From Deltaproteobacteria bacterium (GTDB lineage: Bacteria; Desulfobacterota; RBG-13-43-22), in the NCBI GenBank assembly GCA_016219225.1, contig JACRBX010000047.1, positions 3,846-67,845 of the forward strand: DNA of 64,000 nt, written 5' to 3'. This document shows, one piece after another, positions 4,717 to 57,702 of the stretch. The number at the start of each line of letters is the position of its first letter. The stretch's first letter is position 1. The notes beneath the pieces are model-generated. The model did no database searches. It saw only the letters and a program-made list of their open reading frames with translations, and was not told where the DNA came from. The position numbers and the translations under genes are program-made.

Positions 4717-5196
4717 ATGCCGATAGCATCAGATGTTAAATTGGGGAAAGGGGTCTGCTTCCATCATCCCGAATTAATCAATCTCTATGGGTGCAGTATC
4801 GGTGATGAGACCAAGATCGGTGCCTTTGTGGAGATCCAAAAAAATGCCCAAATAGGTGCCCGTTGCAAGATTTCCTCTCATGGTTTTATCTGTGAAGGGG
4901 TAACGATTGAGGATGAGGTCTTTATAGGGCATGGGGTGATCTTTATTAATGATCGGTATCCTCGGGCAACAAGGGATGGTTATTTACAGGATGATAGCGA
5001 TTGGGAGGTCGTCCCCACAAAGGTTAAACGCGGGGCTTCTATCGGTAGCGGGGCGTTGATCCTTTGTGGCGTAACTATTGGAGAGAAGGCCATGGTGGGT
5101 GCAGGAGCCGTGGTCACTCAGGATGTACCCGACTGGGCCATAGTTGCAGGGACGCCAGCCAGATTCATTAGGAATATCAATGAAAAAGAGCAATAG
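4717..5196 (+). CDS. sugar N-acetyltransferase, left-handed beta-helix (hexapeptide repeat) family
   Basis: Repeated [LIV]G-x4 hexapeptide pattern (IGAFVEI, IGARCKI, IGHGVIF, IGSGALI, VGAGAVV); WbpD/QdtC-like size. Confidence 0.7.
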   Translation: MPIASDVKLGKGVCFHHPELINLYGCSIGDETKIGAFVEIQKNAQIGARCKISSHGFICEGVTIEDEVFIGHGVIFINDRYPRATRDGYLQDDSDWEVVPTKVKRGASIGSGALILCGVTIGEKAMVGAGAVVTQDVPDWAIVAGTPARFIRNINEKEQ

Positions 5197-17264: not shown

Positions 17265-17723
17265 TTAATGGGTTCGTATTTCTATCAGAGTGCCTTCCGG
17301 CAATAAGGTGGATAGGGATATTTTTTCTGTTCCCCATTCTAACCGGACTTCCCCGATAGGAGATATCAGCATCGGGATCTTGCCGATTTTTCTGGAGAGC
17401 CTGACCCAGTCAGAGGTAGATTCTTCAAGGCCATAATATTCCAGGACCGCCGGGCTGCCGGTTTTTATCCTGTCCAGCCAGATTGAACCTTCTGAATCGA
17501 TTAAAAAAGCTTCCCAAACCCAGGTGTCGTAAATCGAATTGCGATGAATCAGGAAGAACTGATCCCCCGGGATAATCGGTCTTTCCCAATAGACCCGGCC
17601 GGCATCCCTTAATACCACTTGAAGCAAAGTGGTCGTGTGAGCTGGTAAAGGCAACAGGACCCACAACAGGATCAGGAGAATGGCCGGCAGGCGTTTTTTT
17701 CTTTTTCGATCCCTGGGTTCCAT
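17265..17723 (-). CDS. DUF1850 domain protein (TAXI-TRAP associated)
   Basis: 152 aa, N-terminal TM helix; position between the TAXI binding protein and the fused permease is typical. Confidence 0.6.
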   Translation of the reverse strand: MEPRDRKRKKRLPAILLILLWVLLPLPAHTTTLLQVVLRDAGRVYWERPIIPGDQFFLIHRNSIYDTWVWEAFLIDSEGSIWLDRIKTGSPAVLEYYGLEESTSDWVRLSRKIGKIPMLISPIGEVRLEWGTEKISLSTLLPEGTLIEIRTH

Positions 17724-17868
17724 TAGGCGCTTAGTACCGATACCTCGACAAAGTTTTGTTGATCAAGGGGCGAACTTCCTCATTTTGCTTCGTCGGTGCC
17801 CACGTCAGGTGGGTATGATGGTTTAACACGCCAATATGAATAATAAATATCGAATTATGAATTTTTTT

Positions 17869-17932
17869 CCTTCCTTCGATATTCATTATTCGATATTTGA
17901 TATTTTCATGTTTCGTAGTGCCCCATAGTGGC
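17869..17932. repeat. Repeat related to the hdrL leader repeat (acgaaacatgaaaat ... atcgaat motif), inverted orientation
   Basis: The reverse complement matches 41325-41385 (cacgaaacatgaaaatNNgaatatcgaat..atgaatatcgaagga). Confidence 0.55.
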
Positions 17933-17944
17933 AAGAGGGGTTTG

Positions 17945-18937
17945 TTAGATTTTTGCCCCTTTTTCCTTATAATACTTGACCGCTCCCGGATGGTAAGGAA
18001 TAGGGGTGCCATGCACCGCCCCTTCCAGGGTCAGGTGGTTGGCCTCTTTATGAACGGCCACCAGTTCCGGTTTATGGGCAAACAAGGTTTTTAAGATATT
18101 ATAAGCCAGGGCGGCATCCAGTTTTTCATGGCAGATCAAGATATTGGCGACGGCGGCCACATGGGTGTCCGAAGCAATTCCAGGGTAGGTGTTTTTGGGG
18201 ATGTTTCCTTTGAAATAGACCGGTCCGTATTTGGCCACCATTTTGGCTACACCATCCTCGTGGCCGATCAGTTTAATTTTGATCCCCGGCGTAGCGGCGA
18301 TATCCAGGATGGAAGCGGTCGGCAGCCCTCCGTCCCAGAAATAGGCATCGATCTTATTATCTTTCAAGGCCCCGGCCGATTCGCTGGCCCCCAGCCGATC
18401 CCGGGTAATATCCTTGTCGGGATTAATACCATAAGCCTCCAAAACCCGTAAGGCCTTAACTTCCGTCCCTGATCCCGGGGCACCGGTCGATATTTTTTTC
18501 CCTTTCAGGTCGGAGACTTTATTGATGCCTTTTCCATCCAAGGCCACGACATGCATAAAGTTGGAATAGAGTACGGCCAGATTGCGGATGGGGAGTTTAT
18601 CCTTGAATTTCCCGGTCCCCATATAGGCATCATAAGCCACATCACCCATGACAAAACCCAGATCGGCCTTTTGGGCGGCCACCAATTTGCAGTTGTCCAC
18701 CGAGGCGGCGGTGACTTCGGCCGTTACCTCCACCCCAGGCAAATATTTGGTCAGGACTGCGGCCATCCCTCCCCCATAGGGGTAATAGACCCCCCCGGTC
18801 CCCCCGGTAACGACGGATAGCCGGACTTTGGTTTGGGCTAAAACCTGGTCCGGGGAATAAATCAGGATTCCCAATCCGACAGCACTGGAAATTTTTAGAA
18901 AATCCCTGCGATTCAAATAATGACTTTTCCTCTCCAT
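17945..18937 (-). CDS. TAXI family TRAP transporter solute-binding subunit (Tat signal)
   Basis: N-terminal RRDFLK twin-arginine motif; TAXI/Imp-like periplasmic binding protein pattern. Confidence 0.8.
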   Translation of the reverse strand: MERKSHYLNRRDFLKISSAVGLGILIYSPDQVLAQTKVRLSVVTGGTGGVYYPYGGGMAAVLTKYLPGVEVTAEVTAASVDNCKLVAAQKADLGFVMGDVAYDAYMGTGKFKDKLPIRNLAVLYSNFMHVVALDGKGINKVSDLKGKKISTGAPGSGTEVKALRVLEAYGINPDKDITRDRLGASESAGALKDNKIDAYFWDGGLPTASILDIAATPGIKIKLIGHEDGVAKMVAKYGPVYFKGNIPKNTYPGIASDTHVAAVANILICHEKLDAALAYNILKTLFAHKPELVAVHKEANHLTLEGAVHGTPIPYHPGAVKYYKEKGAKI

Positions 18938-27545: not shown

Positions 27546-27705
27546 TAACCGTGTTCTCTTAAGAAAAGGCCCAAGGCGCAGGGTTCAAGGTTCAAGGAAA
27601 ACCGAGGGCCGGGGCGGGTTTAAAACCCACCCCTACAAAGGTTGAGGACTATTCATAGGTTTTCGAACCGAACTCCGAACTCTTAACTCCGAACTTTCTA
27701 TCGGG

Positions 27706-37798: not shown

Positions 37799-37811
37799 GT
37801 GAATAAGCATA

Positions 37812-37890
37812 GGGTTCGGAGTTCGGAGTTGGGAGTTTGTAGACGGACTATACTATAAACCTTATACTCCGAACTCTAAACTCCGAACTT
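37812..37890. repeat. Inverted pair of 7-nt-period arrays (GTTCGGA)n ... (TCCGAAC)n, potential long hairpin
   Basis: gggttcggagttcggagttgggagttt ... actccgaactctaaactccgaactt. Confidence 0.7.
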
Positions 37891-37929
37891 GCCCCCCTTT
37901 TGTTAATTGTTTCAGAGTGAAGGCGCAAA

Positions 37930-40567: not shown

Positions 40568-41273
40568 TCTGAAGGGGGTTAATGCGTTCTATGGAACGAT
40601 TCAAGCCTTAAAAAACGTCTCCATCAAAGTGGGGGACGGAGATATTGTTACCATCATCGGAGCCAATGGGGCCGGGAAAACCACATTACTGAAAGCCATA
40701 TCGGGGGTGATTCAAAACAGGAGCGGAACGATACGCTATCAGGATATTAATATCATCCACCATTCCCCGGTAAAAATTGTTGCCCTGGGGATTTCCCAGG
40801 TCCCGGAAGGCCGTCAGTTGTTTGCCCACTTGACCGTATTGGACAATTTGCATCTGGGGGCCTATCTGTATCATAATCGGAAATTCAAGAACGAGATCGA
40901 AGAAAAACTGGATTGGGTGTTTAATTTATTCCCCGTTCTGAAGAAGCGGGCCAAGCAATTGGCTGGAACCATGAGCGGAGGGGAACAACAGATGGTGGCT
41001 ATTGCCCGGGCCTTGATGTCCCGTCCAAAACTCCTCCTTCTGGATGAACCCTCCATGGGCCTGGCCCCTCTGGTGGTACACGAAATTTTTAAAGTCATCC
41101 GGCGACTGAATGAGCAAGGAACGACTATCCTGCTGGTGGAGCAAAATGCCCGGGCTGCTTTACAGATCGCCGGATACGGTTATGTCCTGGAAACCGGCAC
41201 CGTAGCCCTGGAAGGCCCGGCCCAGGAACTTCTGGCTGATGAAAAAGTCCGTCATGCGTATCTGGGGAAATAG
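40560..41273 (+). CDS. ABC transporter ATP-binding protein (LivF-like)
   Basis: GANGAGKTT Walker A, MSGGEQQM signature; start chosen at the ATGCTTGA overlap (MLDLKG). Confidence 0.85.
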   Translation: MLDLKGVNAFYGTIQALKNVSIKVGDGDIVTIIGANGAGKTTLLKAISGVIQNRSGTIRYQDINIIHHSPVKIVALGISQVPEGRQLFAHLTVLDNLHLGAYLYHNRKFKNEIEEKLDWVFNLFPVLKKRAKQLAGTMSGGEQQMVAIARALMSRPKLLLLDEPSMGLAPLVVHEIFKVIRRLNEQGTTILLVEQNARAALQIAGYGYVLETGTVALEGPAQELLADEKVRHAYLGK

Positions 41274-41305
41274 ACTCCCCTGAGAAACATCACGGTGTAA
41301 GCCCT

Positions 41306-41544
41306 CATGCCCGCACGAACACCACGAAACATGAAAATGCGAATATCGAATATCGAATATCGAATCATGAATATCGAAGGAGAGTTTCCTTTTAATTCCG
41401 AAATCCGAAATCTAAAATCCGAAATCGGAATATATTTTCGTACTAAGCCCCCATGCCTGTTTTGTAGGCCACGAACAATGAAAATGGGTTTCGCCGAACG
41501 CCGAACGCTTAACGCCGAACGTTTTTTTCGTACTAACTCCCATG
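41306..41544. repeat. Tandemly duplicated ~100-150-nt leader unit with three different embedded 7-mer arrays (ATCGAAT, TCCGAAA, GCCGAAC); the hdrL ATG lies inside the unit's terminal motif
   Basis: Each unit runs catgccYg ... cacgaaNcaNtgaaaatgNg ... 7-mer array ... tttcgtactaaScccatg; the second unit ends with the hdrL start codon. Confidence 0.6.
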
Positions 41545-44500
41545 AATCAAACCGTAGACCATAAAATTGGAGCCGTATTAATTGCCGGGGCCGGTATATC
41601 CGGCATGCAATCGGCCCTGGATCTGGCCAATGCGGGCTTTAAGGTCTATCTGGTAGAGAAGAACATCAGCATTGGCGGGGTTATGGCCCAGTTGGACAAG
41701 ACCTTTCCGACCAACGACTGTTCCACTTGTATGATTTCCCCTAAATTGATCGAAGTAGCCGGTAACCCCAATATCGAAATTATAACCCGGACCCGGATAA
41801 AAGGGATCGAGGGAGAACCGGGGAATTTTACCGTTGCTTTATATCGGGAACCCCGATTGATCAAGGAAGAGGCCTGCACCGGATGCGGAGAATGTATTAA
41901 GGCCTGTCCCGTCGAAGTCCCGGCCGATTTTAATCTTGGGCTCAACCGCCGGAAGGCCATTTACCGACATTTTCCACAAGCCGTACCTTCGGCCTTTGCC
42001 ATCGACCGGCGGGGTACCTCTCCCTGCAAGGCCGCCTGCCCGGCTCACATCAGCGTCCAGGGCTATGTGGCCCTGATTGCCCAGGGAAAGTTTGCCGAAG
42101 CCCTGAATCTCATTCGGCAGGAAAACCCCCTGCCTTTTGTCTGCGGTTATGTTTGTACCCATCCCTGCGAAGAAGCCTGTTTGCGACAAGAGGTGGATGC
42201 CTCGGTAGCCATCCGGGACCTCAAGCGCTTTGTGGCCGATTATGAGAGAAATCAAGAACCGGTAAGGCTTCCCCTGGTGGAAGGGAAAAAGCCCCGGAAG
42301 ATAGCCGTTGTTGGCTCCGGGCCGGCCGGGCTGACCTGCGCCTATTATCTAACTTTACAGGGATATTCCGTAGAGGTTTTTGAGGCCTTGCCCGTGGCCG
42401 GGGGCATGTTGACCGTCGGGATTCCCACCTACCGCTTGCCCAAAGAGGTGGTGGCAAGGGAAATTAAGGCCATTGAAGGCCTGGGGGTCCGAATTCATTT
42501 GAATGCACCAATTGGGCCTGATCATACTCTGGCAGATCTCAAAGAGAAGGGATTTGAGGCCGTTTTTATCGGTGTCGGGGCCCATCAAGGGATTCGTTTA
42601 GGGCTTGAAGGGGAAGACCTGGAAGGTGTGGTGGCCGGAGTGGATTTCCTCAGGCGGACAGCCCTGGGTCAACAGAAATCGTTGGGGAAAAAGATAGCCG
42701 TCATAGGCGGCGGCAATGTGGCCATCGATTCCGTACGGACCGCCCTGAGGATGGGGGCCGAAGAGGCCATGGTCCTTTACCGGCGGACCCGGGAGGAAAT
42801 GCCGGCCTACGAAGAAGAAATTGAAGAGGCCCTTGAGGAAGGGGTGTCCATCCATTACCTGACCGCCCCGATGAAATTTATTGGAGATGAAGGGGGCAAG
42901 CTTAAAGCCATTGAATGTCTTAAAATGGAGTTGGGTGATCCGGATGCCTCGGGCCGACGGAGACCGGTACCCATCGAAGGTTCCCTTTTTACGATTCCCG
43001 TAGACGGGGTGATTACGGCCGTCAGCCAACAACCAGAGATGGAAAAGCTGAAGCTTCCAGCAGGCGTTAAGGTTTCTCCCTTTGGGACCCTGGAGGTCGA
43101 TCCGGTTACCTTTCAGACCGACCTTCCCTGGGTTTTTGCCGGTGGAGATGCGGTTTCCGGGCCAAAGACGGTTATCGAGGCCATAGCCGCAGGCAAGGAA
43201 GCGGCTCTTTCCATTGATCGTTTTTTACAAGGGAAGGATCTGGCCGCGGACCGGGAGAAAATTTTCGAACCGGCCCGGCCGGATATTCAGGGTATAGCCA
43301 AATCCCCTCGTTGTAAACCCCGGCGAACCGATCCCAACAGACGCCGGACCCGATTTGAAGAAGTGGTCCAGGTCATGACCGAAGAGGAAGCCCGGACGGA
43401 AGCGGCCCGCTGTCTGGCCTGCGGAATCTGTTCCGAGTGCTATCAATGCCTCGAGGCCTGCAAGCCCGGGGCTATCGATCATGCCATGAAAGGAGAGGAT
43501 ATTTCTCTTCAGGTGGGGGCGGTTATTTTATCTCCCGGGTTTGAAATCTTTGATGCCCGTCTTAAAGGAGAATACGGTTACGGCCGATATCCCAATGTCT
43601 TGACCAGTTTGGAATTCGAACGCCTCCTTTCGGCCTCCGGTCCCTTTATGGGTCATATCCAGCGGCCTTCAGACGCTCAGGAACCCCGGAGGGTGGCCTG
43701 GATCCAGTGTGTCGGCTCCAGGGATGCCTCCATCAACCAGGATTACTGTTCCTATGTCTGCTGTATGGTTGCTACCAAGCAGGCCGTTATTGCCAAAGAA
43801 CATTTGCCTTCTCTGGAACCGACGATTTTTTTTATCGACCTGAGGGCCCAAGGCAAAGGCTTTGACCGTTATTATGAACGGGCCAGGCATGAGCATGGGG
43901 TCCGCTATGTGCGCAGTATGATTTCCCGGGTGGTGGAGCATCCCAAGACCCACGATTTAATCATCTCCTATATTGATGAGAACAATGCTTTCCAGAATGA
44001 GGAATTCGACCTGGTAATCCTTTCGGTAGGCCTCAAGCCCCATTCCGAATCCCGGCAGCTCGCCCGGATATTAGATATCCGGACCGATCGCTTTGGTTTC
44101 AGCCAGGCGCCGCCTTTTAATGCGCTGGGAACTTCTCAACCGGGAATTTTTGCCAGCGGTGTCTTTCAAAACCCCAAGGATATTCCGGAGACGGTAACCC
44201 AGGCCAGCGGTGCAGCCGGGGAAGCGGCCGCCTTGCTCTCGGGGGCCCGGGGCACGAAGATCAGGGAATTGGTCTTTCCGGAAGAACGGACGGTGGCCGG
44301 GGAAGAACCGAAGATCGGGGTGCTGATCTGCCATTGCGGCATCAATATCGCCGGGGTGGTGGATGTGGATCAGGTGACGGAATATGCCAAAACCCTGCCC
44401 CAGGTTGTTTATGCCGATCACTTCCTTTTTACCTGTTCGACGGACAGCCAGGAACGGATGCAGCAAATCATAAAAGAACAGGGCTTGAACCGGGTTATCG

Positions 44501-48241: not shown

Positions 48242-49288
48242 GTGAATCCCACTAATTCCAAAGTACTCATCCTCGGCGGCGGCATTGCCGGCCTAACGGC
48301 TGCCCTGGCCCTTGGCCGTTTGAATATACCAGTGGAACTGATCGAAAAATCAGAGGCCCTGGGAGGAATGGCCCGGAATTTTTGTTGTAAGGCCACAGAA
48401 GCCTGCCAGCAATGCGGTGCCTGTCTTATAAATGATGCCCTGGCGGCCTTGACTAAAGAACCCTTTATTGAGATTCATTTGCAAACCGAGTTAACCGCAT
48501 TAAAGATGGAAGCCAAGGAATTTCTCTATACTTATAGCCGCCCTGGGGGGGGCGGCGAGGGAAGGGCCCAGGCCCTTCTCCTGGCAACCGGTTTTACCCC
48601 CTTCAGGGCTGAAGACAAACCCCAGTATCGGTATAAAACCTTGCCCAATGTCCTGACCGGGTTAGATCTGGAAAGACAACTTAAAGACACCGGGAACATC
48701 GTCAGACCATCCGATCGGACCATCCCCCAGTCCATAGCCTTTATTCAATGTGTCGGCAGCAGAGACCTTCATTCAGGACATCCCTATTGTTCTCAGGTTT
48801 GCTGCGGTTATGCCCTGCGCCTGGCCAACCTGATCAAGCATAAGAATCCGGAGATGGCCGTCACTGTTTTTTATATGGACATCCAGACCTTCGGCCAGAA
48901 TTTCCCCCTCTTTATGGAACAAAGCCGAAAGCAAATAACTTTTGTCCGTTCCATTCCCGGCGAAATACAAAAGGGGGAGAACGATCAGGCCGTCTTAACC
49001 TTCCAGAAGGAGACCGGGGCCGGCAGTCAAAAACAAGCCTTTGATCTGGCCGTGCTCTCCATCGGCATCAGACCCGGGCCGGACCATTTGTTTTTAGCGC
49101 AACGATTGGGAATTTCACTAACGCCCGATGGTTTCCTGAGTAAAGACGAAGGGTCTTCCTTCCGGCCGGAAGGGATTTTTTTTGCCGGCACTGTTCAAGG
49201 GCCTAAAGGCATCGAGCGAAGCATTTCCCAGGCCTATCAGGCCGCCGAAGAAGTGGCCGATTATTTGAAAACGAGGTCGAACCAGTGA
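48242..49288 (+). CDS. short HdrA-like FAD-dependent oxidoreductase (lacks the ferredoxin insert)
   Basis: LILGGGIAGLTAA Rossmann motif; FIQCVGSRDLHSGHPYCSQVCC cluster; HdrA C-terminal motif FFAGTVQGPKGIERSISQA. Confidence 0.7.
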   Translation: MNPTNSKVLILGGGIAGLTAALALGRLNIPVELIEKSEALGGMARNFCCKATEACQQCGACLINDALAALTKEPFIEIHLQTELTALKMEAKEFLYTYSRPGGGGEGRAQALLLATGFTPFRAEDKPQYRYKTLPNVLTGLDLERQLKDTGNIVRPSDRTIPQSIAFIQCVGSRDLHSGHPYCSQVCCGYALRLANLIKHKNPEMAVTVFYMDIQTFGQNFPLFMEQSRKQITFVRSIPGEIQKGENDQAVLTFQKETGAGSQKQAFDLAVLSIGIRPGPDHLFLAQRLGISLTPDGFLSKDEGSSFRPEGIFFAGTVQGPKGIERSISQAYQAAEEVADYLKTRSNQ

Positions 49289-50943
49289 TTCCCCTGGAAG
49301 AATTTAAAAAGATTCCCAGGGTGCTCATCCTGGGGAAGGGACTGACGGCCCAGGAAACGGCCGCACAACTGATTTCCTTAGGCTATGAGGTACTGTCGGT
49401 CGATCCCGATGACCAAAGGCCATTGCTGCGGATCGAAGGTTTTGCCGGGGACTTCCAGGTGCAATTTAAATCCGGACAAAAGCAATGGACTGAGGCTGTA
49501 GGCGCCATTGTTTTTGCTCCTGAGTTGGTTGCTGAACCCAAACCAGATGTCTATTCCTTGACCGCTTCCGATCAAATCATAGGTATTGATGGCCTGGTTG
49601 AACTTCTTTCCCCCTCACCTTCACCCCATGGAATGGAAGAATTGGTTCCAGCGGGCCAGTCTCCTTCGGCCTATCCGGCCTTCAGTTCTTCTTCTTATAT
49701 TGCCTTCCTGGTTGGGTTACAGGACGAAGGAAACGTGGCCGAAATGGCCAGGATCTTTTGGCTGGCCTTAAAGATTCGAAAGGAATATCAATCACAAGTT
49801 TATATCTTTTGCCGTCATATCAAGGTGGCCGAAGAGGGGATGGAGAGGCTCTACCAGACTTGCCGGGACGAAGGGGTGATTTTTTTCAAGTTTGATGGGG
49901 CAGGGCCGGAAATGGTCAGGATTGGAGAATCGATCGGCTTGGAATTTGAAGATGCCGTGTTAGGACAGCCTTTTGAATTAAAGCCCGATCTTCTGGTTAT
50001 TGAACCCCTCCAGGTGCTGCCCCGGGAAATCCGGGAATTGGCTGTTTCCGCTCAAATCGGGATGGATGGAATGGGTTTCCTTCAGCCGGCCAATGTTCAC
50101 CTGCTGCCCCAGGCCTCAAAGCGGGAGGGGATATTTATCGCCGGTCCGGGAAAAGGCCCCATGGTCCCTCAAGCCTGTTTGGAAGAAGCCCGGGCCGCGG
50201 CGTTGTCGATCCATCATTTTTTTGAAGGCCGGATTTCAGACCAGATGGACCGGGAGGTTACGGTTGATAAGGGGCTTTGCACCATCTGTCTAACCTGTCT
50301 CCGCTACTGTCCCCATCAGGCCATAGGCTTTACCCACCGGGTTTTTATCCACCCTCTGGCCTGCCGGCGTTGCGGCATCTGTGCCAGTGAATGCCCCATG
50401 GATGCTATACAAATCGCCGGTTTTTCCGATCAGGAGGTGGAGCTGAAATTAGCGGCCCTCCAGGAAAGATGGGAGCAAATGGAAACCGGTCTGGTCAGGA
50501 TGGTTATTTTCGGTTGTCAGCGGTCGGCCGGGAGGGCCTGGGAGGAAGCTCAAAGCTCAAAGCTCAAAGTTCAAAGCGACAACGAAGAGGTGCAAGGTAC
50601 AAGGTATAAGATACAAGGTGAAATCGAATTTATTGCACTGCCCTGTGCCGGAAAGCTGGACCCCGATTATATACTGAAAGCCTTGAGTATGGGGGCCGAT
50701 GGGGTGCTGGTTCTGGCCTGTCCGGAAGAAAATTGTAAATCCTTACACGGGAATACTTACGCCCGGGAGCGTATCCAGGAGGCCCGGCATTATGTGGAAG
50801 AGGCGGGCCTCAATCCGGAAAAGATCCGTTTTAACAATTTATCGAGCAACATGGTTTGGTATTTAAAGGAAATTATCGGGGAATTTATGGATGAACTAAG
50901 CGAATCCAAAATTCCGCAATCCGCAATCCGCAATCCGAAATAG
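49285..50943 (+). CDS. fusion protein: degenerate HdrA-like domain + 2x[4Fe-4S] ferredoxin + MvhD-like domain, with an internal repeat-encoded insertion and repeat-encoded C-terminal tail
   Basis: CTICLTCLRYCP / CRRCGICASECP motifs; MvhD motifs VIFGCQRSAG ... IALPCAGKLD ... GADGVLVLACPEENC; 7-mer arrays at 50546-50616 and 50896-50943 lie in frame. Confidence 0.65.
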   Translation: MIPLEEFKKIPRVLILGKGLTAQETAAQLISLGYEVLSVDPDDQRPLLRIEGFAGDFQVQFKSGQKQWTEAVGAIVFAPELVAEPKPDVYSLTASDQIIGIDGLVELLSPSPSPHGMEELVPAGQSPSAYPAFSSSSYIAFLVGLQDEGNVAEMARIFWLALKIRKEYQSQVYIFCRHIKVAEEGMERLYQTCRDEGVIFFKFDGAGPEMVRIGESIGLEFEDAVLGQPFELKPDLLVIEPLQVLPREIRELAVSAQIGMDGMGFLQPANVHLLPQASKREGIFIAGPGKGPMVPQACLEEARAAALSIHHFFEGRISDQMDREVTVDKGLCTICLTCLRYCPHQAIGFTHRVFIHPLACRRCGICASECPMDAIQIAGFSDQEVELKLAALQERWEQMETGLVRMVIFGCQRSAGRAWEEAQSSKLKVQSDNEEVQGTRYKIQGEIEFIALPCAGKLDPDYILKALSMGADGVLVLACPEENCKSLHGNTYARERIQEARHYVEEAGLNPEKIRFNNLSSNMVWYLKEIIGEFMDELSESKIPQSAIRNPK

Positions 50944-50947
50944 AACG

Positions 50948-51415
50948 ATGGATCGTATTGACCTGAAAAAATTAGACCCCGATTTTAAGCACCGGTTAGC
51001 CCGGGAATTGGGGGGGGAACACATCAAAAAATGTTTTTCCTGCGGGGTCTGCTCGGCCCGCTGCCCCGTAGAAAAAATCGAGCCGGAGTATAACCCGAGA
51101 AAGATCATCCGTATGATCTTGTTAGGCATGGAAGAGGCCTTGCTCAAAGAAGAATTCCTCTGGCACTGTTCGACCTGTTATACCTGTCAGGAATCCTGCC
51201 CCCAGAAGGTTAATTTTACGGAAGTCATCTTCGCCTTGCGCAACCTGGCCGTCCGCAAAGGCCTGGCCCCGCCCGGTATGGGAGCGGCCCGGAATTTACT
51301 CAGTCAGCAGGGTCGGATGTATGAGGTGGGGGATTTTGAAAATGAGAAACGTCAGGAACTGGGGCTGCCGAAGATAATGGGAAACCCGGAGGAATATAAG
51401 AAGCTCTTAGGATAA
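50948..51415 (+). CDS. hdrC: heterodisulfide reductase subunit C-like (2x[4Fe-4S])
   Basis: CFSCGVCSARCPV and CSTCYTCQESCPQKV motifs. Confidence 0.8.
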   Translation: MDRIDLKKLDPDFKHRLARELGGEHIKKCFSCGVCSARCPVEKIEPEYNPRKIIRMILLGMEEALLKEEFLWHCSTCYTCQESCPQKVNFTEVIFALRNLAVRKGLAPPGMGAARNLLSQQGRMYEVGDFENEKRQELGLPKIMGNPEEYKKLLG

Positions 51416-56825: not shown

Positions 56826-56908
56826 AAGGTACAAGGCGTAAGGCTCAAGGTAAAAACGGGGAAATTAAAAGGTCTAACCCTTGTGCCTTGTGCCCTGCGC
56901 CTTGCGCC
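56826..56908. repeat. Inverted pair of AAGGNNN 7-mer arrays
   Basis: aaggtacaaggcgtaaggctcaaggtaaaaac ... cccttgtgccttgtgccctgcgccttgcgcc. Confidence 0.7.
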
Positions 56909-56922
56909 AAAAGAGTTTTTAT

Positions 56923-57702
56923 ATGATTTACGCCGGTGTCGATGTAGGCTCGTCTACCACTAAGGTGGTTCTCATGGGCCAGGAGAAAAACCTATTGGGC
57001 TGGTCGGTTCAACGGTCGGGAACCGATTTTGCCGCTGTTGCCGAAGCCTGCCTGAAACAGGCCCTGCGCCAGGCCGGGCTGGCCGTAAACCCAAAAGAGA
57101 TAAAAACCATATCCACCGGATATGGGCGGAAAAATGTCGGTTACACCGACGGAGACAAGACCGAAATCAGTTGTCATGCCCGGGGGTGTTATTATTATTT
57201 TCCGGAAGCCATAACCATAATCGATATCGGGGGCCAGGATAATAAGGTCATTCAATTAGATGAAAAAGGCCGGCGGATCAATTTCAAAATGAATCGAAAA
57301 TGTGCAGCCGGGACCGGTGCTTTTTTGGAAGAGATGGCCTTGCGGCTGAATATCCCTTTGGAAGATTTGAATGATCTGGCCCGGCAATCCCGGGAGGCGG
57401 TTGAGCTGGGGAGTTTTTGCACGGTTTTTACGGCTACCGAGGTTTTGGAAAAGATCCGCCATGGGAAAAAAGTGGCCGATATCGTCAAAGGTTTGTTTTT
57501 GTCGGTCATCAAACGGGTTTTGGAAATGGATCTTTTAAGTGAACACGTTGTGATAACCGGAGGGGTGGTGGCCTATAATCCTTATTTGAAGGTTATATTG
57601 GAAGAGCACCTTCATCGGCCGGTCTGGGTTCCCAGGTATCCACAGCTTACCGGGGCCATCGGGGCCGCTTTGTTTGCCCGGGAAACGTTTACAAACAAGT
57701 AG
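56923..57702 (+). CDS. acyl-CoA dehydratase activase-type ATPase (BadF/BadG/BcrA/BcrD / HgdC family)
   Basis: MIYAGVDVGSSTTKVV (ASKHA N-terminus); two Cys for the bridging [4Fe-4S] (KCAAGTG); start at ATG 56923 rather than the upstream TTG. Confidence 0.75.
   Translation: MIYAGVDVGSSTTKVVLMGQEKNLLGWSVQRSGTDFAAVAEACLKQALRQAGLAVNPKEIKTISTGYGRKNVGYTDGDKTEISCHARGCYYYFPEAITIIDIGGQDNKVIQLDEKGRRINFKMNRKCAAGTGAFLEEMALRLNIPLEDLNDLARQSREAVELGSFCTVFTATEVLEKIRHGKKVADIVKGLFLSVIKRVLEMDLLSEHVVITGGVVAYNPYLKVILEEHLHRPVWVPRYPQLTGAIGAALFARETFTNK

Follow-up and report, generated by a model that had tools for sequence, protein, structure and literature searches.

The spacer between livF and hdrL in an uncultured Desulfobacterota genome holds a tandem pair of BOX-like, probably mobile repeat units

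Introduction

The BOX elements of Streptococcus pneumoniae, built as boxA-(boxB)n-boxC, transpose slowly and have been judged parasitic and not dedicated regulators (Croucher et al. 2011, PMC3049150). The genome of Geobacter metallireducens carries four- and five-fold tandem heptanucleotides, including the 49-copy Gmet_H4 family (GGACCGG) and class 3 sites (MTYCTGA) (PMC2700814), and for the TAACTGA direct repeats of Beggiatoaceae, Cyanobacteria, and Bacteroidetes a role as a translation or RNA-binding platform was proposed (PMC4679880). PATEs, which derive from IS200/IS605 elements, move as single strands by 'peel-and-paste' transposition (PMC3597680). Here, we analyzed a 64,000-nucleotide (nt) stretch, hereafter the window, of a Deltaproteobacteria bacterium genome (assembly GCA_016219225.1, contig JACRBX010000047.1, positions 3,846 to 67,845), focusing on the spacer between a livF-type transporter gene and hdrL. 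The 5' region of hdrL is probably a tandem pair of a non-autonomous mobile repeat resembling BOX elements and miniature inverted-repeat transposable elements (MITEs), inserted after a TAA in a gap of 32 to 35 nt, with an incidental effect on hdrL, and selfish DNA is a likelier description of it than a dedicated control element.

Results

In the window, the livF-type gene (Pfam ABC_tran) ends at 41273 and hdrL, whose product is a 1473-aa HdrA/NfnB-like fusion according to Pfam, starts with an ATG at 41542, leaving a gap of 268 nt that contains two head-to-tail units (Table 1). Both units contain catgCC, CACGAA(AC/CA)ATGAAAATG (41323-41339 and 41470-41486), and TTTCGTACTAA (41436-41446 and 41526-41536), after which 6 or 5 nt precede an ATG. 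Across the family to which they belong, a unit measures about 90 to 150 nt and consists of a left (L) module, RCCCTCATG followed by a GC-rich hairpin that begins at the G of ATG and by (C)CC-ACGAA-NN-ATGAAAAT, a right (R) module, (T)ATTTTCGTAYTAA, and between the two a cargo of 3 to 6 heptamers or other sequence. In the window, TTTCGTACTAA had two exact matches against 0.44 expected at no more than one mismatch, and ACGAA-NN-ATGAAAAT occurred three times, always at sites named in an earlier, sequence-only reading of this DNA. That reading had described two consecutive units with the same frame between livF and hdrL, which the sequence, the arrays reported by Tandem Repeats Finder (TRF), and the motif matches bear out, while the consensus it had typed, CACGAANCANTGAAAATG, was one base too long and had zero matches, the correct form being CACGAAMMATGAAAATG. 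In all three arrays framed by L and R modules at the hdrL site, CGAA recurs each 7 nt.

Contigs across the livF-hdrL junction were collected via LivF homologues (loci are referred to by L numbers). In four lineages whose LivF is 87 to 91% identical, the two genes are separated by a 32-35-nt spacer that is homologous to the window flanks (contigs L126, L127, L128, L130, and L131) and follows the pattern GTAA/GTAG^CTCCC-ATG (the caret marks the insertion point), for example ACCACTCCAAGAAGAAAAATCTCGCAGTAA^CTCCC-ATG in L130 and ...TCTCGCAGTAG^CTCCC-ATG in L126. The spacer end together with the start codon, CTCCCATG, is identical in L126, L127, and L130 and reads CTCTCATG in L128, and the start in relatives without the element reads CTCCC-ATG-AAT/AAG-CAA. 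One unit is present exactly at that point in L129 (LivF 98% identical; ...CATCACCTATTAA^GCCCTCATG...ATTTTCGCATTAA^ACTTCC-ATG), and two are present in the window and in L002, a contig whose strain encodes exactly the same LivH protein. The L002 units share the layout and the place, with other heptamers (CTTTGAG; CTTGAAA) and TATTAA for TACTAA. Because both window flanks match the short spacer, the 236 nt from 41301 to 41536 form an indel that coincides exactly with the element ends. AAGGAGG-like Shine-Dalgarno (SD) sequences are the rule in the window, with hdrL, an open reading frame (ORF) starting at 17723, and a gene at 50948 lacking one, and hdrL orthologues at 78 to 80% identity, which start ATGAAYC, also have no SD. 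The hdrL ATG, its C-rich context, and the SD-less start are ancestral. The earlier suggestion that the leader carries its own start codon is not supported, since relatives without the element already have CTCCC-ATG, and at other loci the sequence after terminal R modules is unrelated.

Between the window and strains L001 to L006, coding DNA is 96 to 98% identical and alignments break exactly at repeat-bearing spacers. Units at the orthologous hdrL site are 55 to 66% identical to one another. By contrast, a unit located 5' of an acyl-CoA synthetase gene in a related metagenome-assembled genome (MAG; L027) shares 92% identity with window unit 2, L002 unit 2 is 81% identical to the L010 unit, and the L129 unit is 76% identical to the L021 unit, the cargo of this last pair differing by a one-heptamer indel. 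The cargo heptamers of sister strains at the hdrL site have no common motif (CGAA types versus CTTTGAG, CTTGAAA, and AACCCGA).

A collection scan of one genome per species with the exact pattern ACGAANNATGAAAATN{38,68}TTCGTAYTAA, for which about 1 chance match was expected, returned 39 loci. About 27 were true copies, found in a dozen Thermodesulfobacteriota/'Deltaproteobacteria' (Desulfobacterota) MAGs with six each in two of them, and permitting one mismatch added copies within the same loci. Eight matches in Bacilli fell in the coding sequence of a conserved GTPase gene (typA/bipA, read from its translation) and were excluded, as were three further matches attributed to chance. Hence the pattern recurs far beyond chance, and the proposal of a mobile, dispersed cassette is supported by further copies both genome-wide and in related strains; the family is a small non-coding repeat confined to one lineage. 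Head-to-tail arrays of two or three units are common elsewhere (L010, L017, L024, L028, L036, L043, and L044). The genes 3' of R ends encode shikimate kinase, lipoyl synthase, an RNase H-like protein, MotA/ExbB, acyl-CoA synthetase, GatC, a LuxR regulator, IspD, a TPR protein, and acyl-CoA dehydrogenase. Where the two neighbouring genes run in the same direction (about 17 elements), 11 to 12 elements are sense and 4 to 5 antisense, and divergent and convergent placements also occur. All-against-all BLAST of the family loci gave no orthologous pairs and hence no further empty sites, and in the libraries and literature searched there was no description of the element, nor of heptamer repeats in Desulfo- taxa.

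Units of the family sit directly 3' of TAA or TAG in a T-rich context and themselves end in TAA, and a TAA lies directly 5' of the L module, six nt before its ATG, in 21 of 31 units. In the commonest cargo, NCCGAAC-type heptamers are repeated four times, the third copy being deviant; other units contain either a GC-rich hairpin or two heptamer arrays in inverted orientation. RNAalifold on a MAFFT alignment of L modules returned zero pairs because variable loops misalign the hairpin arms, and the L hairpin was evaluated instead by individual folds and shuffles. In these per-sequence folds the mean free energy was -6.6 kcal/mol, versus -3.2 kcal/mol for shuffles, with values of -4 or lower in 23 of 31 units. 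The arm variants co-vary (GCCCC/GGGGC, GCCCGC(C)/(G)GCGGGC, GCTCG/CGAGC, GCCT/AGGC, and ACCC/GGGT; a GTCC stem also occurs), the GCCT/AGGC arms of window unit 2 differing from the usual GCCCC/GGGGC by compensating changes, and the hairpin is real, with a loss in window unit 1. ATGAAAAT of the L module is complementary to ATTTTCGT of the R module, and in most single-unit folds the two form a helix around the cargo that is often extended by G.U pairs; L002 unit 1 contains a cargo-less L-R hairpin.

Terminal inverted repeats were not found: the left end, RCCCTCATGCC, has nothing beyond TTAA in common with the reverse-complemented right end, TTARTACGAAAAT, and the sole inverted repeat is internal and bears indels (ACGAA..GAAAAT / ATTTTCGT). 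Nor was there a target-site duplication that differs by site, both flanks sharing TAA only; the C or T four bases from the left-flank end agrees with its R-end counterpart in just 9 units out of 31, and the two are uncorrelated. Separately, the reverse complement of the L-module start (CATGAGGGYTTAATATG) gives GAGGN, 6 nt, and ATG for a divergent gene in L041 (about 4905-4925; a LysR-like gene, judged from its N-terminus), in L113 just 5' of its hdrA-like gene, and in L007 (about 2010-2030), so that the left end of the element can abut, and perhaps supply, an opposite-strand ribosome-binding site.

We scrutinized the units for a coding, RNA, or promoter role. A small ORF or leader peptide running from the L-module ATG to the R-module TAA was rejected, as its length modulo 3 was 0, 1, or 2 in 8, 11, and 11 units and in-frame stops were many. 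An 85-aa ORF across both hdrL-site units (41307-41564), out of frame with hdrL and unconserved in L002 and L129, is a repeat artefact. Rfam gave 0 matches in the window at the gathering score, the best sub-threshold match at the locus being ARRPOF (15.5 bits versus a 127-bit cut-off). The idea of a structured leader was not upheld, since the 287-nt region folded no better than dinucleotide shuffles (z = -0.24 sense and -0.59 antisense) and recurring structure is limited to the small L hairpin and the short L/R closing helix. The idea of a promoter cassette fared likewise. A promoter scan found no sigma-70-like site in the livF-hdrL spacer, and a lenient scan of 33 units gave none in 19 even at 8 of 12 matching positions and no constant position in the others. 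A sigma-54 promoter in the L-module GGCAC-N-GCAT would have a GG-to-GC spacing one base too short and its GC on the two least conserved positions. A sigma-32-like CTTGAAA...CCCCAT has too long a spacing and is not in the window units, and an anti-SD role of CCCTC was uninformative as any SD pairs with CCCTC. A dedicated regulatory role, as had been proposed for hdrL, is unlikely because downstream genes are unrelated, copies occur antisense, and the cargo at the same site is wholly different between strains about 97 to 98% identical.

A second array of the family fills the gap downstream of the TRAP (TAXI) receptor gene, with an L motif at 17917-17902 on the minus strand. The inverted copy that had been placed at 17869-17932 is real, on the minus strand, and its extent was understated, as the two-unit array spans 17950-17721. 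Pfam supports the TRAP genes (NMT1_3 and DctM) along with the names livF and hdrL, while the gene that had been called 'DUF1850', the 152-aa ORF with its ATG at 17723, had no Pfam match even at E<=5.

Table 1. Coordinates of the repeat units, their parts, and the flanking ancestral sequence in the window (L and R, left and right modules)
Feature	Position	Strand	Remarks
Left part of ancestral livF-hdrL spacer	41274..41300	+	Ends TAA (41298-41300), element follows; homologous to the 32-35-nt spacers of L126-L128, L130, and L131
Unit 1, 146 nt	41301..41446	+	L module GCCCTCATG + degenerate, lost hairpin + CACGAAACATGAAAAT (41323-41338); cargo of two heptamer arrays; R module ATTTTCGTACTAA (41434-41446)
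Heptamer array CGAATAT x5.6, unit 1 cargo	41340..41378	+	TRF; period-7 scan
Heptamer array TCCGAAA x4.9, unit 1 cargo	41397..41430	+	Third repeat deviant (TCTAAAA); TRF; period-7 scan
Unit 2, 90 nt	41447..41536	+	L module GCCCCCATG, hairpin, CACGAACAATGAAAAT (41470-41485); cargo of four heptamers; R module TTTTTCGTACTAA (41524-41536)
Unit 2 L-module hairpin GCCTG-TTTTG-TAGGC	41455..41469	+	Begins at G of cATG; -5.0 kcal/mol, matched by 1% of shuffles
Heptamer array GCCGAAC x4 (TRF: CGCCGAA x4.3)	41492..41521	+	Third repeat deviant (GCTTAAC); commonest cargo type of the family
CTCCC + ATG, ancestral hdrL start context without Shine-Dalgarno	41537..41544	+	Outside the inserted element; match to empty-site spacers
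Two-unit array	17721..17950	-	Fills gap from stop of TRAP (TAXI) receptor gene (17945) to ATG (17723) of 152-aa ORF
Unit A of second site	L module 17950-17902; inverted heptamer arms 17901-17873 and 17854-17831	-	
Unit B of second site	Diverged L module 17828-17778; variant R' module ACTTTGTCGAGGTATCGGTACTAAGCGCCTA-ATG 17754-17721	-	R' variant present in L028 too

Heptamer arrays are not limited to framed units. The 64-kb window contains 16 arrays of at least four period-7 units, against 0 in 30 Markov simulations, and zero arrays of periods 6 and 8 to 12. Eleven of the period-7 arrays are wholly intergenic, though about 91% of the window is ORF, and arrays follow all three solute-binding-protein genes (17.9, 27.6, and 37.8 kb) and occur in convergent gaps. 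In the livK-livH spacer (37799-37929), all strains have an inverted pair of about 4-heptamer arrays without L/R frames and in an identical layout, whose heptamers are unrelated (GTTCGGA / AAGGTNN / AGGCNNG) in three strain groups (the window, L001/L002/L006, and L003-L005) with flanking genes about 97% identical. In four-heptamer arrays (e.g. 27668, 32843, 41397, 41492, 46115, 52845, and 56879; L017-L044), the deviant is usually the third, penultimate repeat whatever the heptamer, and of the 13 framed arrays in which a single repeat deviates, 10 have it at repeat 3; common descent cannot account for this rule across different heptamers. A GC-rich REP-like hairpin (GGGGCGGGTTTAAAACCCRCCCC) stands beside window heptamer arrays (27600-27640) and is the L/R-framed cargo in L017, and is a further module of the same mosaic.

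Within ORF 49285-50943, AAGCTCA x4, a 10-nt spacer, and AGGTNCA x4 (50541-50619) lie in frame in an MvhD/FlpD domain and add about 24 residues (QSSKLKVQSDNEEVQGTRYKIQGE) to the protein, flanked by RMVIFGCQRSAG and IEFIALPCAGK; only beyond this insert does the Pfam match begin. These arrays look like an in-frame selfish insertion, of which the Rickettsia palindromic elements are known examples. An array at 50907-50945 overlaps the 3' end of the same ORF, whose tail ...IPQSAIRNPK* comes from TCCGCAA repeats, and ORF 56881-57702 has its nominal TTG start within one at 56878-56909; because of such arrays, the boundaries of genes in this genome are easily mis-called. The repeats also break short-read assemblies, as several short-read contigs terminate at repeat-bearing spacers and GCA_964627515.1 shows a stretch of Ns precisely where the livF-hdrL spacer lies (L001 11164-11263, contig CAZVHO010000119). 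More distant relatives, represented by metagenome contigs, also have diverse heptamer arrays adjoining hdrA-like genes, with up to 8 arrays per 7 kb in L096-L106 and long TAACTGA/GATAACT arrays in L098 and L097, whose hdrA-like genes have 48% identity to the HdrL N-terminus.

liv-type ABC transporter genes stand beside hdrL down to about 77% livF DNA identity and are 32 to 35 nt away in four lineages, which suggests that the liv transporter may be co-transcribed with the HdrL/MetF gene cluster. In L128, the position of the long hdrL is taken by a 293-aa gene and a NuoF-like gene.

Discussion

Among described elements, BOX is the closest architectural analogue of the hdrL units, sharing pairing-capable conserved ends, a variable number of internal repeats, a mostly intergenic position, and restriction to a lineage, and being likewise small, non-coding, interspersed, and co-transcribed with neighbours. 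As in BOX, complementary end modules (the ATGAAAAT/ATTTTCGT helix) flank a variable cargo and copies are dispersed; the likeness is one of architecture only, as there is no sequence relation and the internal repeats are 45 nt in BOX versus 7 nt here. Unlike BOX, the hdrL units form head-to-tail arrays, follow TAA, and apparently turn over much faster. In composition, the nearest analogues are the Geobacter elements and the STRR/TAACTGA repeats. The Geobacter elements resemble the cargo in being multicopy four- or five-fold heptamers, intergenic and intragenic, in a related deltaproteobacterial-type genome, but their heptamers are different and their description, on which this comparison relies, includes no L/R frame. 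Cyanobacterial STRR heptamers, too, are short intergenic heptamer arrays. Like STRR and TAACTGA repeats, the window arrays have 2 to 6 copies, are mostly intergenic, and often lie a few nt 5' of starts without a canonical ribosome-binding site. However, those genomes have one dominant heptamer each, whereas here there are many heptamers, fours with a deviant third, and one L/R-framed subfamily. None of the window heptamers is CCCCAGT, TAACTGA, or GGACCGG, TAACTGA being seen only at the distant metagenome locus L098.

Other classes of repeat fit less well. A classical MITE moved by cut-and-paste with a DDE transposase was rejected on the missing terminal inverted repeats and site-variable target duplication, and integron attC sites on the absence of RYYYAAC ... 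GTTRRRY cores from the L/R modules and on units standing back-to-back without ORFs beside housekeeping genes. REPs are single imperfect palindromes of 20 to 40 nt with a GTAG head, occurring in inverted pairs, and are said to have been described by Higgins in 1982 and Newbury in 1987, reportedly with the first examples at hisJ-hisQ and malE-malF. The heptamer hairpins of the window occupy the same niche, as in three transporter loci (livK-livH at 37.8 kb, Peripla_BP_6 at 27.6 kb, and the TRAP receptor at 17.9 kb) they separate the binding-protein gene from the permease gene, and REP/BIME and window elements are both mosaic. The hdrL units, in contrast, are direct tandem repeats that are largely unstructured and fold no better than shuffles, and were not assigned to REP/BIME. 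The family is PATE-like in inserting 3' of a short sequence without terminal inverted repeats or target duplication, in its sub-terminal left hairpin, in being strand-specific, and in a right end that recreates the target, as seen from the empty GTAA^CTCCC (L130) or GTAG^CTCCC (L126) and the filled TAA^GCCCTCATG...TAYTAA^CTCCC. It differs from PATEs in having no constant right-end hairpin, with a left hairpin in 23 of 31 units and only the long-range L/R helix or cargo hairpins at the right, and no obvious guide-to-cleavage complementarity (TCAT/CTCA before the hairpin does not complement YTAA by eye).

Taken as a mobile repeat, a unit would spread or overwrite others by transposition or gene conversion, with an enzyme acting in trans. 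Each unit ending in TAA may recreate the entry site, giving a new insertion point per copy, which would explain the head-to-tail arrays of one to three units. A single-strand mechanism (HUH/Y1, IS200/IS605-like) or a site-specific one would fit better than a cut-and-paste MITE because there are no terminal inverted repeats and no target-site duplication, the 5' target is short and specific, the left hairpin is sub-terminal, and the design is strand-specific. For hdrL, the effect would be incidental, namely a longer, A/U-rich, weakly structured SD-less leader before an already SD-independent start, and the small hairpins may modestly alter mRNA decay, as REP and BOX elements do. It is also conceivable, if quite unlikely, that the framed units and the four-heptamer arrays are products of a new enzymatic system of this lineage, either an HUH or site-specific recombinase or templated repeat synthesis, which would exchange cassettes after TAA in spacers, and occasionally in frame in genes, on the time scale of strain divergence.

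Several observations weigh against an inserted mobile repeat. No transposase or recombinase is linked to the element, TnpA not having been searched genome-wide, nor is it known to exist as a circle or in excised form. At the hdrL site, the L and R motifs are constant while the rest changes, which fits a motif under functional selection too, and across loci their conservation is partly ascertainment, as the search pattern demanded both. Filled and empty strains are sister clades in the livF tree and the 146-nt spacer of the outgroup L047 is unrelated, so parsimony does not polarise the indel, and we infer insertion because the same units are found at many unrelated loci. In about 11 of the 30 clusters, a start codon is found 3 to 20 nt from the R end, and both this proximity and the possible sense bias could mean selection for mRNA function. 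The sense excess and the proximity also speak for the main rival, a 5'-leader or intercistronic RNA platform, in which heptamers held single-stranded within the L/R helix would bind an RNA-binding protein of the S1, Csp, or CsrA type and tune SD-independent translation. The three SD-less starts (hdrL, the 17723 ORF, and the 50948 gene) in an AAGGAGG-rich window point the same way, together with the G.U pairs of the closing helix, which work in sense RNA only, and the 7-nt recurrence of CGAA in all three framed arrays at the hdrL site. Nevertheless, such a platform seems unlikely, as hdrL is SD-less in relatives without the element, so that the element is unneeded for initiation, sister-strain cargo at the same site shares no motif, placements include antisense and convergent ones with no functional theme downstream, and the spacer has no excess folding energy.

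Exchange of the cargo could instead be the purpose, with the conserved R-L junction serving as the site at which a dedicated recombinase swaps cargo and thereby programs diversity of expression. Near-identical strains indeed keep the motifs at a given site yet differ wholly in the interior, 13 of 20 positions agree between the empty site ATCTCGCAGTAG-CTCCCATG and the R-L junction TTTTCGTACTAAGCCCCCATG, the L-R hairpin of L002 unit 1 resembles an 'empty' cassette without cargo, and bulged L/R arms with a variable terminal structure recall attC architecture. Yet no recombinase was identified, attC-type cores are absent, cargo types occur without L/R frames (window 27668), and ordinary gene conversion between dispersed repeats accounts for the same data, which leaves such a cassette very unlikely. 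We give still less credence to a portable promoter, in which TAYTAA of the R module would be the -10 element, with a -35-like box 16 to 17 bp upstream supplied by the deviant third heptamer (CTTAAC/TTAACG). Transcription would then start at the A of the ATG 5 to 7 nt downstream and give leaderless or short-leader mRNAs of hdrL and of the next unit. hdrL, the unit junctions, and the 17723 ORF all have TAYTAA-N5-7-ATG, the TAA six nt 5' of the L-module ATG recurs in most units (21 of 31), the commonest cargo type contains TTAACG-N16-TAYTAA, and hdrL has no SD. However, TAYTAA lacks the conserved final T of a -10 hexamer, the sigma-70 scans described above found nothing in the spacer, nothing in 19 of 33 units, and nothing at a constant position, units with GC-hairpin cargo are devoid of a -35-like box, R and the ATG can be as close as 3 nt or >200 nt apart, copies occur antisense, and the 32-nt ancestral spacer suggests co-transcription of hdrL with liv.

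With the repeat read most probably as mobile DNA, the livF-hdrL spacer should not be annotated as a conserved regulatory leader, and hdrL was probably co-transcribed with the liv-type transporter genes because the ancestral spacer measures 32 to 35 nt. This lineage of uncultured Desulfobacterota has dense, fast-evolving, heptamer-based intergenic elements, including a well-defined modular family with clean empty and filled sites that grows in tandem and exchanges its cargo. The repeats could act as strain markers, and the family offers a tractable case for the machinery behind bacterial heptamer repeats, which has been sought since the STRR and TAACTGA reports.

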